From Escherichia phage vB_EcoS_ACG-M12, in sequence record NC_019404.1: a DNA stretch of 46,054 nt, one strand, 5' to 3'. Under the pieces are notes generated by a model that was given only the letters and a program-made list of their open reading frames with translations, was not told the origin of the DNA and did not search any database. The translations under genes and the position numbers were made by a program. Position 1 is the stretch's first letter, and each line of letters opens with the position of its first letter. This document shows positions 1,026 through 44,832 of this stretch, one piece after another.

Positions 1026-1309
1026 TGATCGACTTCAACTTTGAAGTAACAAAACTGAGCCACGAAGAGATTGCTGAAATCGCAGAGAAGAATGGCAAGC
1101 CAGTTGAGTTAATCGCCGCGAATTATAACGGAATGCGCTGGGCTTTTGAGAATGGATGCGATAAGGATAAGCTAGCTGAAATCGCCAAGGAAAATATTGC
1201 TAGCAAGAAGAAGATCAAGCCGTGGTACGAGAAGCACACTCGCACTGAATGGGAGGAAGCTATGGAGTTGTGGCAGTTAATGAAGAAGCTAAACAAATTG
1301 GTAAAATAG
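1025..1309 (+). CDS. hypothetical protein (94 aa)
   Basis: ATG overlaps the upstream stop (TAATG); SD AAGGAG. Confidence 0.5.
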   Translation: MIDFNFEVTKLSHEEIAEIAEKNGKPVELIAANYNGMRWAFENGCDKDKLAEIAKENIASKKKIKPWYEKHTRTEWEEAMELWQLMKKLNKLVK

Positions 1310-1379
1310 CACTTTTTGTTAAAACTCCATGGAGGGAGTTTGGCATAATAGCTTCATTGAAATGAGAGAGGGATTCAAA
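1305..1379 (+). promoter_or_regulatory. conserved intergenic cassette (box variant AATAGCACTTTTTGTTAAA; -10-like CATAAT)
   Basis: Box starts at 1305 and spans the stop of gene 1025..1309; leader CATTGAAATGAG precedes the ATG at 1380. Confidence 0.5.
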
Positions 1380-1460
1380 ATGTACTACGACGTTATCGCT
1401 GTTTGCCTGGTTGCCATTGTTGCTATTGTTGCAATTGTTAAGATTACGGAGAAGAAGTAA
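1380..1460 (+). CDS. tiny hydrophobic peptide (26 aa, MYYDVIAVCLVAIVAIVAIVKITEKK)
   Basis: ATG preceded by GAGAGGG; single predicted transmembrane helix; below the track length cutoff. Confidence 0.35.
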   Translation: MYYDVIAVCLVAIVAIVAIVKITEKK

Positions 1461-1588
1461 TGCATACCATACAGATTAACGATTTAATTAGCGATGCCTT
1501 ACCATGGATAATCTGGTCCCTTGGATTTATGATTGTGTATATTATTGCATCCTTCGCGGATGATGCTAAAGAGGAAATTAAAGAATGA
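1460..1588 (+). CDS. small membrane protein (42 aa)
   Basis: TAATG overlap with the previous ORF; hydrophobic core WIIWSLGFMIVYIIASF; stop overlaps the next start (ATGA). Confidence 0.35.
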   Translation: MHTIQINDLISDALPWIIWSLGFMIVYIIASFADDAKEEIKE

Positions 1589-1815
1589 TTACTATCAACC
1601 TTTCAGATAAACAAGCTGCCGAGCTTAAAGAGGCGATGTCTATAAAGAAAATTCGATACGGCCAGTTTGAACGGGCAGGAGTTATGAGGGAAGTGATTAA
1701 ACAGATCAACAACCAGCAGTTCGACGTAAGTGACTTCGAGAGCTCTCGACAATACGAGGCGCTAAGCGTTAATGCTGCGTACCTGAATAGCTGGGATAAG
1801 GCGACTAAGAAATGA
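1585..1815 (+). CDS. hypothetical protein (76 aa)
   Basis: ATG, overlap-coupled to neighbours. Confidence 0.5.
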   Translation: MITINLSDKQAAELKEAMSIKKIRYGQFERAGVMREVIKQINNQQFDVSDFESSRQYEALSVNAAYLNSWDKATKK

Positions 1816-1985
1816 ATCTTGACAAAGAGGTATTAAGAGATAATTTCATAGCTCACGGAATTGATGATGAAGATTTCCTAAATTGGTTCCTTGATAAAAA
1901 AGCCGATGAGCTTGGTTTGTACTGGTTCTCAACTGGTGCGACAATGTACGAGGCATGGGTGGCAGCAATGGAGACTAATAAATGA
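1812..1985 (+). CDS. hypothetical protein (57 aa)
   Basis: ATG overlapping the upstream stop; uninterrupted frame to TGA; below the track cutoff. Confidence 0.4.
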   Translation: MNLDKEVLRDNFIAHGIDDEDFLNWFLDKKADELGLYWFSTGATMYEAWVAAMETNK

Positions 1986-2116
1986 TTTACATCCATACGT
2001 ACTATACAGGCAAGTTTAATAGCGTTAAGCATGTTCACGTGCACGATAGCTACGATAGCGCAAAGGCGCAATGGCTTGTTCTAGGTGGTGACATTAATTC
2101 ATATAGAATCGCTTAA
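1982..2116 (+). CDS. hypothetical protein (44 aa)
   Basis: ATGA overlap with the previous ORF; stop TAA directly followed by the dyad box. Confidence 0.35.
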   Translation: MIYIHTYYTGKFNSVKHVHVHDSYDSAKAQWLVLGGDINSYRIA

Positions 2117-3486: not shown

Positions 3487-3561
3487 GCTCTGTTAGCTTA
3501 ATGGAAAAAGCCGCAGCCTTCTAAGCTGTTGATGGTGGTTCGACTCCACCACGGGGCGCCA
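3487..3561 (+). tRNA. tRNA-Arg(UCU)-like, 75 nt with encoded CCA
   Basis: Hand-folded cloverleaf: acceptor GCTCTGT/ACGGGGC (two G-U pairs), D-stem GCTT/AAGC with GG in the loop, anticodon stem GCAGC/GCTGT with loop CTTCTAA, T-arm GGTGG-TTCGACT-CCACC, discriminator G, CCA. Confidence 0.6.
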
Positions 3562-24144: not shown

Positions 24145-25105
24145 AGTAGAAGCTTGGAATAAATGGAAGTGCCATTGATATATTTGTGTCGAAAGGGAAC
24201 TGAGCGCCAGTCTGAGTTGAATAGTTACCTATTACAGAGCCAGGAACAGCCCTAACAGAGCCTCCAGACATGCAAACGCCCTTGTATCGCAAGTTGTTAT
24301 ATCCTCCAGTAACTCTAGTCGTAGCGCCACATCTAAGAATAGGGAAGAATCCACCATTTATTGACTGATATCCATTGCTTATTTGTATAAATCCACTAAG
24401 TACGAATGGTCGCCTAACGCTTGAAAAAACAATCTGACCAGAGCTATTTGACATTGTTAGTCCTGGTCCGGCTGGTGGGGGTTCATTTCTGAATATCACC
24501 AGCTGAACATAAGTACTTGCCGAAACATCATCTGTACCTCCGTAGGTTATATCCCTGCACCATATTGTTGATCCATCTGATTCAAGTGATACGTTTGGAT
24601 TATCCCACTTGCCGAATGGTATGCCGCTAACTGGTAGCGATGCCGCCCCGTTAACCTGTATGCCTCCAACCCATGCTGCTGACATTAGTCTCGAGTTGCT
24701 TGATATAGCAAGGAAATCAGTTGAGTTCTCAACGAGTATCCCTGGGCTTGATGAAGGTGATGCTGGTAGAATTTCAAAACAATTACCCGCAAAGTCAATT
24801 ATTCGACCATTGGCACCATTGAAGTTACTAAGTGTTATCCTGCCAACTCCGTCATTAACCTTTTGGAATCCGTTCATGTAATAAACTTCAGGTATAACAT
24901 CGTAAGCATCAACGTGGACTGCCTTCGTTGGTAGGCAGAAAGCCGTAGAGCCAGGAGACATTGTCAATCCAAAATCCCACGAACTTGCTGGGGTTGAAAG
25001 TCCATTGGTATTTATTGATCCAGTCACAGCAGGTGCCCTTAATCCTGCCGTTATTTCCATCGCTGGTCTTCCGTCATTGAGGTCAATCAATATACCCTGC
25101 GGCAT
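24143..25105 (-). CDS. beta-rich Gly/Ser/Asn-rich protein (320 aa), possibly receptor-binding or tail-associated
   Basis: Composition only; last gene of the minus operon; start at the ATG after AAGGAG. Confidence 0.35.
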   Translation of the reverse strand: MPQGILIDLNDGRPAMEITAGLRAPAVTGSINTNGLSTPASSWDFGLTMSPGSTAFCLPTKAVHVDAYDVIPEVYYMNGFQKVNDGVGRITLSNFNGANGRIIDFAGNCFEILPASPSSSPGILVENSTDFLAISSNSRLMSAAWVGGIQVNGAASLPVSGIPFGKWDNPNVSLESDGSTIWCRDITYGGTDDVSASTYVQLVIFRNEPPPAGPGLTMSNSSGQIVFSSVRRPFVLSGFIQISNGYQSINGGFFPILRCGATTRVTGGYNNLRYKGVCMSGGSVRAVPGSVIGNYSTQTGAQFPFDTNISMALPFIPSFY

Positions 25106-25356
25106 TATTTCCACTCCTTGCTGCCATGATCTGCAATAGAGCCACCGTAACCGCCGCCAGCCTTGCTTTCAATTCCGGCGTAGCGAACATCAACCTCACC
25201 AGCCGGAACAACTACGCCACCTTTCCATTTAGCTACGCACACACCATTTGCTTGTGTTGCACACCAACCATCCGGGCGAGGACCAGATGAGCAACCTACC
25301 ATCATGATTGCTGCTGCGGCGATGATTGAAAGTTTGATTAATTTAGTCATTTTCAT
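25105..25356 (-). CDS. lipoprotein (83 aa), Cor-like superinfection-exclusion candidate
   Basis: Signal peptide with lipobox MMVGC|SS; small size; located next to the tail fibre genes as cor is in T1/phi80-type phages (from memory). Confidence 0.45.
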
Positions 25357-33661: not shown

Positions 33662-33750
33662 AATAGCACTTTTTGTTAAAAGTCGTTTTGATTTAGTGTT
33701 AGTATTGTACTCAACAAAACGCCACAACACAAATTAATAGGGCTTAACAA
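33662..33750 (+). promoter_or_regulatory. conserved intergenic cassette (AATAGCACTTTTTGTTAAA variant) in a divergent promoter region
   Basis: Box at 33662-33680; TAGTAT-like -10; precedes the helicase ATG at 33751. Confidence 0.45.
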
Positions 33751-37648: not shown

Positions 37649-37902
37649 GTATGTTGGGTTTAGATTTTCAGCCAGAGCATTACGATTTAGTATATGGTCA
37701 AAGTGGTGCAAAGTTTAGAGCGATACCTATTGCTGATTGGTTCCCTCCTGATTATGTGGATGTGAACGCAAAAACTAAAGACGGGAAGTGGGTTCAGATT
37801 TACTACTCCCCAGCATGCGGAAACCTTTGTATGACTGACATTGATCAGAAATTAGCAATTAGTGCGGAAGTTATAGACTACTGGTTGAAAGAAGTTGAAT
37901 GA
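37645..37902 (+). CDS. hypothetical protein (85 aa)
   Basis: ATG, overlap-coupled. Confidence 0.4.
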   Translation: MSMLGLDFQPEHYDLVYGQSGAKFRAIPIADWFPPDYVDVNAKTKDGKWVQIYYSPACGNLCMTDIDQKLAISAEVIDYWLKEVE

Positions 37903-37985
37903 AGAGCCTGATACTAGTAGCATTAGTCCAACTATTTAGCTTTACTATCTTATATTTTATCGTAATGAATTAAGGAACTTATATA

Positions 37986-39122
37986 ATGGCAACTGCAAAA
38001 ATTACCAACGAACAGCTTCTTGAAGAGCTGATTAACGGCATGACCAACAAGGCCATTGCAGAGAAGTACGGAATGAACATTCGCAATGTTGAGTTGCGTC
38101 GCAGTAAATTGGCGAAGCAGGGTGAATGGCATGGAAACCCAGGCATCAAGAAGCTAGTTCCTGACGGTTATTTGGTCAAAGGCACATCAACGATGATTGA
38201 TGCCGAAGGTAACGAAAAGCTGCGCTGGGTTAAAACATCCGTAGATAATGAGCGCCTTGAGGTTTTAATGGAGCAAGCCCGAGAAGCATTCTGCTCTGAT
38301 TTGCCAAAGGCTATTCCATCTGAATCACCGAATGTTAACTTTGATGACAACACGCTTGCGATGTATCCAGTCTTTGACTTGCACATTGGAGCAATGGCTC
38401 ACAAACATGAGTGTGGCGAAAACTACGACACAGAAACAGCAGAGAAGGTTATGAATGGTTTCTTTGACTACGCTGTAGATAAGGCTCCGAACTCAAAGAA
38501 TGCCGTGCTTGTTCTTGGTGGTGATTTCTTGCATTACGATTCATTAGAGGCAAAAACACCAGCGTCAGGCCATATCTTAGATTCTGACAGCCGTTACGCA
38601 AAGATTGTTTATGTCGCAATCCGTTCAGTGCGACGTGCAATTTCTAGAATGATGGAAAAGCATCAAGTTATTGATATTAAAGTAATAAGTGGAAACCACG
38701 ACGAGGCAGGGATGGTTTGGCTGCGCGCTGCGCTTGCTGCGTTTTATGAAGATGAACCGCGCGTAAATGTTGATGTTAGCCCAGCCGCAATGATGATGAC
38801 CAGCTTTGGAACTACGCTTATTGGATACACCCACGGGCATCAAATGCGAAAAGCAGATACGCGACTAACTGTTATGGCAACCGATTTTCGTAAGTTATTT
38901 GGTCAAAGTGAGTATGTTTACACACATAGTGGCCACTGGCATTCGCAGAAGATTACAGAAACAAACTTGGGTATTGATGAGGTTCATGGGCAGCTTGGAA
39001 GCCCTGACGCGTACTCAGCAAATGGCGGATGGCGCTCTCAACGTCAAGCGGCGGTTATTGTCTACCATAAAGAATTCGGTGAAGTTGGCCGCTTCATTTG
39101 TCGCCCTAAAATGTTTGGATAA
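37986..39122 (+). CDS. metallophosphoesterase (calcineurin-like) with N-terminal HTH-like domain (378 aa)
   Basis: DLHIG (DxH), GGDFLHYD (GDxxD), GNHDE (GNHD/E), later HGH and GHWH motifs; N-terminal NKAIAEKYGMNIRNVELRR helix-turn-helix-like. Confidence 0.6.
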   Translation: MATAKITNEQLLEELINGMTNKAIAEKYGMNIRNVELRRSKLAKQGEWHGNPGIKKLVPDGYLVKGTSTMIDAEGNEKLRWVKTSVDNERLEVLMEQAREAFCSDLPKAIPSESPNVNFDDNTLAMYPVFDLHIGAMAHKHECGENYDTETAEKVMNGFFDYAVDKAPNSKNAVLVLGGDFLHYDSLEAKTPASGHILDSDSRYAKIVYVAIRSVRRAISRMMEKHQVIDIKVISGNHDEAGMVWLRAALAAFYEDEPRVNVDVSPAAMMMTSFGTTLIGYTHGHQMRKADTRLTVMATDFRKLFGQSEYVYTHSGHWHSQKITETNLGIDEVHGQLGSPDAYSANGGWRSQRQAAVIVYHKEFGEVGRFICRPKMFG

Positions 39123-41169: not shown

Positions 41170-41385
41170 ATGAGGGAAGTAATCAACGCCGCTACGGCGT
41201 CAACTGGAGGGGCAGCGGTAACTGGAGCGGCAACTGGTCAGATGACTATAGCAATAATCAGCCTTATCGCTTTAATCATTTTTGGTGCGTGGGGTGCTTA
41301 CTGGAAGTTTAAGGATAGCCAGGCGATTCGGCGCGCTCTTGAATCAGGAGACTTAAAAACAGCAATCAAGATAAGGAGTAAGTAA
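41170..41385 (+). CDS. holin candidate (71 aa)
   Basis: Single transmembrane helix IAIISLIALIIFGAWGAYW; charged C-terminus; immediately upstream of the endolysin; start at the ATG after GGAGG. Confidence 0.55.
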   Translation: MREVINAATASTGGAAVTGAATGQMTIAIISLIALIIFGAWGAYWKFKDSQAIRRALESGDLKTAIKIRSK

Positions 41386-41871
41386 ATGAAGCAGAAGCTG
41401 CTAATTAGCGCGGCTACGGCTACGGCAATATACATCGCAGCACCGCTTATTGAGCTCGTAGAGGGTGTGGAAAACAAGCCTTACATGGACATTGCTGGAA
41501 TCCCTACTGTTTGCTCTGGCGTTACTGGCCCTGACGTTGTTTGGGGTAAGACCTACAGCAACAGGGAATGCCGGAACTTACTGGAGAAGCACATTCAGAT
41601 TCATGCCAGGCATGTTCAGAATGCAGTTACCTACCCAATCGCACCTCAGACAAGAGCGGCTTTAATCAGCTTTAGCTACAACGTTGGTGGAAATGCGATG
41701 AGGAATTCAACGGCAGTTCGACTTATTAATCAGGGTAAAGTTGAGCAGGGTTGCAATGCTCTCGGGATGTGGAATAAGGCTCGGGTTAACGGAAAGCTAA
41801 AGGTAGTTAAAGGCCTGGTTAACAGGAGAAACGAGGAGATTAAGTTATGCTTAAGTGGATTGCAGCGTTAG
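41386..41871 (+). CDS. endolysin, GH24 lysozyme family (161 aa)
   Basis: Catalytic arrangement E-x8-D-x5-T (LVEGVENKPYMDIAGIPT), as in the P22 gp19/T4 e lysozyme family; N-terminal hydrophobic segment. Confidence 0.75.
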   Translation: MKQKLLISAATATAIYIAAPLIELVEGVENKPYMDIAGIPTVCSGVTGPDVVWGKTYSNRECRNLLEKHIQIHARHVQNAVTYPIAPQTRAALISFSYNVGGNAMRNSTAVRLINQGKVEQGCNALGMWNKARVNGKLKVVKGLVNRRNEEIKLCLSGLQR

Positions 41872-42236
41872 TAATGTGCATGGCTTTATCTGGATGCTCA
41901 GCAACTGAAGTCCTGACCGGATTGATTGGAAGTAAACCAGATGTCACTGCGCAGGTTGGAGCGGCTAACAATAAAGTCGGCGTTGGTGCTTCCGTTAGTA
42001 GCGACTCCAGCAATTCCAGTGAAGCCACTGTAAGGGATTCTAAGGTTGGGAGCCTGGATAGCTCAAGCAGAAAAAAGACCTCCGACAATTCAATTAAGGC
42101 ATCAACAATCACTGCCGAAAAGATTGAGATTACAAACAATGAATCATCATCACTACCGTGGATTGGTACTGGCGTTATGTTCTGCCTGGTTCTTATTCTT
42201 CTGGCAATTATCTTAAGACGTAAAAAAGCCCCTTAA
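41847..42236 (+). CDS. unimolecular spanin-like lipoprotein (129 aa)
   Basis: Lipobox ALSGC|S at the N-terminus plus C-terminal transmembrane helix LPWIGTGVMFCLVLILLAIIL; overlaps the endolysin 3' end, as for the T1 gp11-type u-spanin (from memory). Confidence 0.6.
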   Translation: MLKWIAALVMCMALSGCSATEVLTGLIGSKPDVTAQVGAANNKVGVGASVSSDSSNSSEATVRDSKVGSLDSSSRKKTSDNSIKASTITAEKIEITNNESSSLPWIGTGVMFCLVLILLAIILRRKKAP

Positions 42237-44761: not shown

Positions 44762-44832
44762 TTCTCATCTCCCGTCTCGATGGAAAGATAATGCCGTATC
44801 TCACATAAATGCTTTTAGCAATTCGTGCTATT
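44762..44832 (-). promoter_or_regulatory. conserved intergenic cassette, minus orientation
   Basis: Reverse complement of 44814-44832 reads AATAGCACGAATTGCTAAAAGC; leader CCATCGAGACGGGAG. Confidence 0.45.

Follow-up and report, generated by a model that had tools for sequence, protein, structure and literature searches.

Two overlapping reading frames for predicted single-helix membrane peptides open a coupled operon in the T1-like coliphage vB_EcoS_ACG-M12

What do membrane peptides of 25 to 50 residues do in other systems? AcrZ, MgrB, MgtS, CydX, KdpF and the Caulobacter protein SidA, single-helix proteins of about 25-50 aa, act through helix-helix binding to larger membrane proteins. Several phage envelope proteins, namely T4 Imm, HK97 gp15, P22 SieA and the Cor proteins of T1 and phi80, are small and non-essential, and are often carried in moron-like cassettes with a promoter of their own. 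The Ff proteins g7p and g9p (33 and 32 aa) are hydrophobic products of adjacent, coupled genes that enter the inner membrane without signal peptides and form virion caps. Phage accessory genes often encode small membrane proteins, and the early biology of T1-like phages is poorly known.

Here we analyze the 46,054-nt genome of Escherichia phage vB_EcoS_ACG-M12 (NC_019404.1; the whole stretch is called the window below), a T1-like siphovirus of the Drexlerviridae (Braunvirinae, Guelphvirus). A sequence-only reading of this DNA had described two tiny open reading frames of 26 and 42 aa, and both are present, at 1380..1460 (pep1) and 1460..1588 (pep2). As predicted ORFs they were already known. 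The new elements are the selection acting on both, the start codon of pep1, the pep2 family and its mobility across phage families, the link to the geometry of a genomic repeat and the rejection of a lysis label.

Genome setting and operon architecture

Between the left end of the genome and the terminase runs a series of small plus-strand genes, to which these two belong. Over 1000-2200, phage SCS31 (ON081052.1) is 100% identical by megablast and ECH1 98.6%; in MM01 the pair is near-identical, with the same position and order. ON081052.1 already annotates 1329..1460 (43 aa) and 1460..1588, both as hypothetical proteins. The same genes had been deposited as predicted ORFs under ACG-M12_0003/ACG-M12_0004 and MM01_00003/MM01_00004, records that carry neither a function nor a membrane label. 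The features of the locus are as follows.

1305..1324, plus strand: copy AATAGCACTTTTTGTTAAAA of the Drexlerviridae direct repeat aaATAGCACnnnTTGnTAAAA, marking the start of the transcription unit
1329..1379, plus strand: N-terminal extension of the 43-aa GenBank call for pep1, rejected as coding
1342..1349, plus strand: predicted extended -10-like promoter sequence of the TGGCATAAT type (TG-G-CATAAT), located by alignment
1364..1373, plus strand: Shine-Dalgarno region GAGAGAGGGA of pep1, read from the sequence, within the conserved leader
1380..1460, plus strand: pep1, 26 aa, MYYDVIAVCLVAIVAIVAIVKITEKK, with one hydrophobic helix at about residues 5-20
1410..1439, plus strand: 9-bp tandem repeat GTTGCAATT, 3.3 copies (Tandem Repeats Finder, score 46, 90% matches)
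1448..1451, plus strand: Shine-Dalgarno GGAG of pep2, within the last codons of pep1
1460..1588, plus strand: pep2, 42 aa, MHTIQINDLISDALPWIIWSLGFMIVYIIASFADDAKEEIKE, with a central helix at about residues 13-33 and acidic tails
1585..1815, plus strand: downstream gene, Pfam DUF7180, 76 aa
1812..1985 and 1982..2116, plus strand: operon genes 4 and 5, running to the next repeat copy at 2115

The Shine-Dalgarno sequences that had been described ahead of each peptide are indeed there: GAGG at 1368-1371 for pep1 and GGAG for pep2, each 8 nt from its ATG, the latter kept in MM01, IME542 and the Logan contig L017. A further GAGG at 1571-1574 stands 10 nt ahead of the ATG of the downstream gene at 1585. 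The proposed overlap coupling is borne out at junction 1460, where the pep1 stop and the pep2 start share 1 nt in TAATG. The pep2 stop and the next start share 4 nt in ATGA, and since the junctions at 1812-1815 and 1982-1985 are also ATGA, 1380-2116 forms a coupled operon of five cistrons. The pep1-pep2 operon is also non-structural.

What stands in front of this operon? In the related phage TLS, a 21-nt direct repeat, aaATAGCACnnnTTGnTAAAA, was described about 76 nt upstream of start codons, and its authors left its role open between a stoperator, an enhancer site and an UP element (PMC11447400). The TLS "DR" units and the pep1 cassette both open with a canonical repeat copy oriented along transcription; the TLS paper draws no link between the repeats and tiny membrane ORFs (PMC11447400). 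We found eight repeat copies in the 46,054-nt window against 0.55 expected: at 1305, 2115, 17151, 27583, 33662, 39121 and 39690 on the plus strand and at 44813-44832 on the minus strand. The genes behind them are pep1, the gene at 2191, two HNH genes, a recombination protein, a helicase, a PNK and a minus-strand small gene, so that pep1 and pep2 share their repeat and promoter-leader element with helicase, recombinase, PNK and HNH genes. The copy at 33662 sits between a putative transcriptional regulator and the helicase. Beyond this genome, about 250 Drexlerviridae records have matches to 1304-1388, frequently in several places within one genome.

When the eight copies are aligned, they share an extended -10-like hexamer, TGn-yATAAT, and a leader that ends in a Shine-Dalgarno sequence; the position of the hexamer also aligns in Tls, U136B, vojen, P-K7R, XY3, MM01 and IME542. 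The alignment implies a transcript start near 1356 if the element acts as a promoter. Within the repeat lies an inverted repeat, TAGCA-N5-TGCTA, 22 nt upstream of the hexamer. The repeat is too far upstream to serve as a sigma-70 -35 element, which puts the center of the palindrome near -42, like a class II activator site. Each repeat copy has a short hairpin of its own near the -10. The element might be activator-dependent. The placement of pep1 and pep2 in an early operon is plausible in view of the genes that share the element and of the podovirus homologs of pep2, which stand among small genes upstream of those for DNA replication.

The same geometry bears on where pep1 begins. Its length is called as 43 aa in SCS31, ECH1 and ACG-M12 and as 26 aa in MM01, and the gene is unannotated in IME542 (where it lies at 1580-1660). 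In seven of the eight genome copies the distance from the start of the repeat to the ATG is 71-76 nt. ATG1380 lies at 75 nt, which favors the 26-aa form over the 43-aa call. The first-gene ATG in Tls, U136B, vojen, P-K7R and XY3 aligns exactly with 1380; the leader and the ATG position are kept in relatives, and different first genes begin at the aligned ATG. The alternative, ATG1329, reads AGT in MM01 and AGG in IME542 and lacks a Shine-Dalgarno sequence. It comes before the -10-like hexamer, at 24 nt from the repeat where roughly 76 nt would be expected. An in-frame ATG at 1362 is likewise not conserved and has no Shine-Dalgarno sequence. Because the extension at 1329..1379 overlaps the promoter-leader, we rejected it as coding, and the 26-aa start is the better supported one on these alignments. 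Phage annotation routinely overlooks tiny membrane peptides or gives them a wrong start, and pep1 is too long in three records; the fixed spacing from repeat to ATG offers a practical rule for choosing start codons in Drexlerviridae.

Some features of the surroundings deserve mention. The left end (1-527) is 527 bp of non-coding DNA with a (TTA)6 microsatellite at 249-267, and the terminase module is closely preceded by a tRNA-Arg(TCT) gene at 3487-3561. Two records labeled "Campylobacter phage A110b" (MG065688.1) and "Streptococcus phage MBBL140" (OR786094.1) match T1-like coliphage DNA at 80-93%; their host labels look doubtful, suggesting contamination or mislabeling.

Selection, distribution and predicted membrane helices

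Are these frames under selection as proteins? The sequence-only reading had named loss of the frames among relatives as grounds against the genes, and that objection fails, because both frames are kept in the relatives examined and are under purifying selection. For pep1, the DNA is identical in SCS31, ECH1 and ACG-M12 and the protein is identical in ECH1, ACG-M12, MM01 and the Logan contig L017, while IME542 differs at two residues. The four distinct DNA versions, from closely related cassettes of a narrow clade, differ by nine single-nucleotide variants, of which seven are synonymous and two non-synonymous (A12G, K26N), a split with a binomial p of 9e-4 where 23% synonymous sites are expected. 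The best alternative frame, an antisense frame that has its third codon positions in common with pep1, gives 4:5 (p = 0.16), and no other frame has more than one synonymous variant. An antisense 26-aa ORF at 1385..1465 on the minus strand was rejected, as its ATG is lost and a stop gained in IME542, with variants at 4:5. At 26 aa, pep1 is too short for independent support from gene finders or databases, and tblastn with it gave zero matches because its sequence is masked by the low-complexity filter. Nevertheless it behaves as a constrained coding sequence, and on this variant pattern we consider it probably a real protein.

The distribution of pep1 is narrow. It is present only in SCS31, ECH1, ACG-M12, MM01, IME542 and Logan contigs, always directly fused to pep2; contig L018 carries only the 3' end of pep1. 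Searches for extra copies with a back-translated pattern found IME542 alone in IMG/VR and none in the JGI metagenomes, blastn with pep1 DNA returned the four known phages plus noise, and a protein-database search with the 43-aa form returned only ACG-M12_0003. In contig L019 pep1 is missing and pep2 follows directly after the leader, so pep1 is dispensable for pep2. The 9-bp tandem repeat is in frame and encodes (V-A-I)x3 of the pep1 helix; the copies diverge in the third position of codons. We envisage pep1 as a young, lineage-restricted add-on to one pep2 subtype that may have arisen partly by in-frame triplication of these 9 bp.

The evidence for pep2 is broader. Its homologs were detected by tblastn in 15 phage records, with more copies in IMG/VR and Logan contigs, and they occur in Braunvirinae, Rogunavirinae and Slopekvirinae podoviruses (PAS7 and an IMG/VR contig). 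Members of the family are 37-64 aa long, with one central hydrophobic helix and an invariant core, PW..L.LGF.I.Y.I..DD.K, also written P-W-x3-(S/A)-L-G-F-x-I-x-Y-x-I...D-D-x-K, and pep2 itself has all three. Across 12 sequences, 11 columns are invariant: P15, W16, L21, G22, F23, I25, Y27, I29, D34, D35 and K37. Pairwise Nei-Gojobori comparisons of the same number of sequences give dN/dS of 0.06-0.5 (pS 0.4-1.0, pN 0.05-0.35), and synonymous sites are near saturation while the protein is conserved across phage families. We are highly confident that pep2 is a real protein.

The neighbors of pep2 change from phage to phage. Upstream of it stand pep1, a 59-aa protein, a 79-aa protein, a 33-aa hydrophobic ORF or the repeat-leader itself; in Rao1, ES, RobRod40 and Phagiculus the homolog follows unrelated genes, and in PAS7 it belongs to a small-gene block upstream of helicase and DNA polymerase. 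Megablast homology between the window and IME542 is bounded by 1301-1607, which corresponds to the element, pep1 and pep2; this unit fits a mobile, moron-like cassette, as far as its boundaries tell. Run against 1.84 billion representative proteins, the pep2 profile recovered four representatives, all of its own family, and 5,426 E. coli genomes gave zero matches, so the two peptides are not host-derived. By its distribution, then, the pep2 family appears to be restricted to coliphages and to be exchanged horizontally between siphoviruses and podoviruses.

Each peptide had been credited with a single membrane helix, and hydropathy agrees. Among the 501 six-frame ORFs of 20-50 aa in the window, pep1 is the most hydrophobic (rank 1; best 17-residue Kyte-Doolittle window 3.13) and pep2 ranks ninth (best window 2.20; 1.93 over the 21-residue stretch 13-33). 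The AlphaFold2 model of pep2, built from the family alignment, predicts one continuous helix over residues 3-41 with a mean pLDDT of 84.6. The hydrophobic core of pep1 is only about 16 residues long, between an N-terminal MYYD and a C-terminal KITEKK of net charge +2; its predicted topology should be N-terminus out and C-terminus in. In nearly all members of the pep2 family both tails are acidic, with the invariant DDxK at the C-terminal boundary of the helix, and since there is no net-positive flank the positive-inside rule does not predict a topology for pep2. Conservation is spread evenly round all faces of the pep2 helix (moment 0.12). Insertion of both peptides into the membrane is very probable given these helices.

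Database comparisons gave no family for either peptide: Pfam, NCBIfam and PHROGs returned zero matches at E <= 1-10, and a sequence-profile search of the PDB found no relatives. At the RNA level, the pep1-pep2 region matched no Rfam family and its folding is not unusual (z = 0.48).

Further tiny hydrophobic ORFs were encountered in the window and in related phages. One of 24 aa lies at 37899-37973 on the plus strand (MKSLILVALVQLFSFTILYFIVMN), unannotated in every record checked; it overlaps the CDS 37651..37902 through ATGA and ends 12 nt before the CDS 37986..39122. This region is conserved in 89 phage records, and the frame is kept, unannotated, in IME542, Rao1 and JeanPiccard/Bas02, with an essentially conserved C-terminal LFSF(T/I)ILYFIVMN. 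Podoviruses carry an unannotated family of 33-aa hydrophobic ORFs with the C-terminus ...PFLxIYxLIxLF, at about 2372-2473 in L016 and at 853-954 in PAS7. This ORF is directly upstream of the pep2 homolog in L016; in PAS7 a 79-aa signal-peptide protein lies between them. Runs of non-homologous tiny membrane ORFs of 33-38 aa occupy the corresponding accessory region ahead of the terminase in other T1-like phages, namely U136B (257-370, 367-474 and 464-580), Tls (367-580) and ES (2061-2162); the Tls record adds a 26-aa Stp-like peptide (gp05) in that region. The recurrence of tiny membrane ORFs in T1-like phages suggests a membrane-directed role at the level of the class.

What might the peptides do?

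The explanation that we favor, with somewhat better than even confidence, is that pep1 and pep2 are genuine translated micro-proteins, each one inner-membrane helix, carried in a mobile accessory cassette and directed at the host. In this proposal, a host-RNAP promoter-leader cassette composed of the aaATAGCACnnnTTGnTAAAA repeat, the extended -10-like hexamer and the Shine-Dalgarno leader would drive the five-gene operon; pep1 and pep2, as its first two cistrons, would each insert as a single inner-membrane helix; and the most likely mode of action would be to bind and modulate a host inner-membrane protein in the service of host takeover, exclusion of other phages or counter-defense. The movement of pep2 between unrelated kinds of phage, together with its absence from hosts, points to a host component as its probable partner and not to machinery specific to phages. 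Because conservation covers all faces of the pep2 helix, specific packing in a membrane complex or a homo-oligomer is suggested rather than a passive anchor. That the two peptides act as host-directed modulators is about an even call. Any single specific phenotype, be it host inhibition, exclusion, counter-defense or depolarization, is unlikely when taken individually. The sequence-only reading had suggested that such peptides can act as membrane-targeted host inhibitors or exclusion factors, a view that the homology searches, with zero matches to characterized proteins, neither support nor refute.

Do the peptides need to be functional proteins at all? That no gene is present and both frames arose by chance in a non-coding spacer is very improbable. 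In favor of chance, both are very short, neither matches a database family, and small ORFs of their size range are abundant, at 501 in six frames; the frame-specific purifying selection on both, the conservation of the pep2 protein across families despite synonymous saturation, and the gene-like combination of Shine-Dalgarno sequences, overlap coupling and a fixed distance to the repeat all speak against it. A subtler proposal holds that pep1 is a mere coupling or leader ORF that feeds ribosomes to pep2 or tunes the operon, pep2 being the sole functional product. The confinement of pep1 to a handful of phages, the pep2 homologs that manage without it (in L019, Rao1, ES, RobRod40 and Phagiculus), the overlap of its stop with the pep2 start and the simple 9-bp repeat that makes up part of it are all in keeping with such a role. 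It is improbable nonetheless, for the pep1 protein stayed constant over seven synonymous changes with selection in its own frame only, a spacer ORF need not be the most hydrophobic small ORF of the genome, and pep2, with a Shine-Dalgarno sequence to itself, has no need of coupling.

Three further proposals accept both proteins and assign them a particular task. As membrane-permeabilizing toxins of the type I or holin-like kind, they would depolarize the inner membrane early in infection and thereby shut off host transport and energy. In size and hydrophobicity they do resemble Ibs, ShoB, TisB and Hok-type peptides, and, by the title of a 1984 report from Keweloh and Bakker (cited in PMC13407855), T1 infection reportedly changes the permeability of the cytoplasmic membrane early. 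The early change in T1 is usually ascribed to DNA entry and not to gene expression. Pfam has no toxin or holin family that matches either peptide, a pore would call for a polar or charged face that the pep1 helix lacks, conservation on all faces of pep2 fits specific packing instead, and a conserved antisense regulator is not evident, which together leave a toxin role rather unlikely. A minus-strand promoter-like site at 1569->1541 is one of 12 matches where 10.7 are expected, a background frequency, and relatives have a weaker -10 there (ATT->ATG). A role in superinfection exclusion or the blocking of entry at the inner membrane is equally doubtful. It would suit the predicted membrane location, and in podoviruses the pep2 homologs cluster with the tiny hydrophobic ORF and, in PAS7, with the small signal-peptide protein as well, a gene content which suggests that this cluster is envelope-directed. 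Yet neither peptide is homologous to an exclusion protein already known, and the phage, which is virulent and completes its cycle quickly, already has a putative lipoprotein at 25105..25350 on the minus strand, which may be Cor-like (its PHROGs function label is "unknown"). Finally, both peptides have a membrane helix and the record of phage ES (OR466728) labels its pep2 homolog "u-spanin" and the next 53-aa ORF "endolysin", from which one might read lysis proteins (u-spanin, holin or antiholin). This reading has next to no probability: pep2 and its homologs have neither Cys nor lipobox, pep2 has a central helix and no periplasmic domain, neither peptide matches a PHROG lysis or holin family, and their promoter type is common to replication genes. 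A lysis role was also rejected because a complete holin-endolysin-spanin cassette is present about 40 kb from pep2:

41170..41385: holin, phrog_2877, adjoining the endolysin
41386..41871: endolysin, phrog_7
41847..42236: u-spanin, phrog_1804, with an LSGC lipobox and a C-terminal TMD

In ES the two ORFs concerned are at 1201-1335 (the 44-aa pep2 homolog) and 1354-1515 (53 aa), and both labels look like misannotations, for neither suits an ORF of that size and character; the pep2 homolog lacks every defining feature of a u-spanin of the T1 gp11 type.

Within the favored explanation of host-directed micro-proteins, a more daring version can be put forward: the pep2 family may dock into one conserved inner-membrane complex of E. 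coli and neutralize or hijack it. We regard this docking view as a long shot. Candidate targets would be a membrane-anchored defense sensor or effector, a divisome component or a component of DNA entry, and pep1 would be a recently born partner peptide, built in part by the 9-bp triplication between the conserved leader and pep2 and met at an early stage of its evolution. If the docking view is true, pep2 would represent a new kind of 40-aa transmembrane anti-host or anti-defense factor. Current understanding stays as it is unless a function for pep1 or pep2 is found; both are cheap experimental candidates for host takeover, exclusion and counter-defense in T1-like phages.

Comparison with known small membrane proteins

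How does the locus compare with described systems? The likeness to the type I toxins (Hok/Gef, Ibs, ShoB, TisB, Ldr, DinQ) lies in size and extreme hydrophobicity: pep1 and pep2 are, as those are, shorter than 60 aa and hydrophobic with a single helix, and ShoB, at 26 aa, has exactly the length of pep1. The two differ from such toxins in matching no Pfam family and in being the first cistrons of a polycistronic operon rather than a stand-alone toxin-antitoxin locus. To Imm, gp15, SieA and Cor they show no homology and are much smaller. The Ff proteins g7p and g9p resemble them in pairing, size and coupling; again there is no homology, and a virion role is not expected in a tailed phage. With the AcrZ-type proteins they share no sequence homology, and pep1 and pep2 are phage-encoded. 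By analogy with those small regulatory inner-membrane proteins, the all-round conservation of the pep2 helix would fit a mode of action in which one short helix binds the helices of a larger membrane protein.
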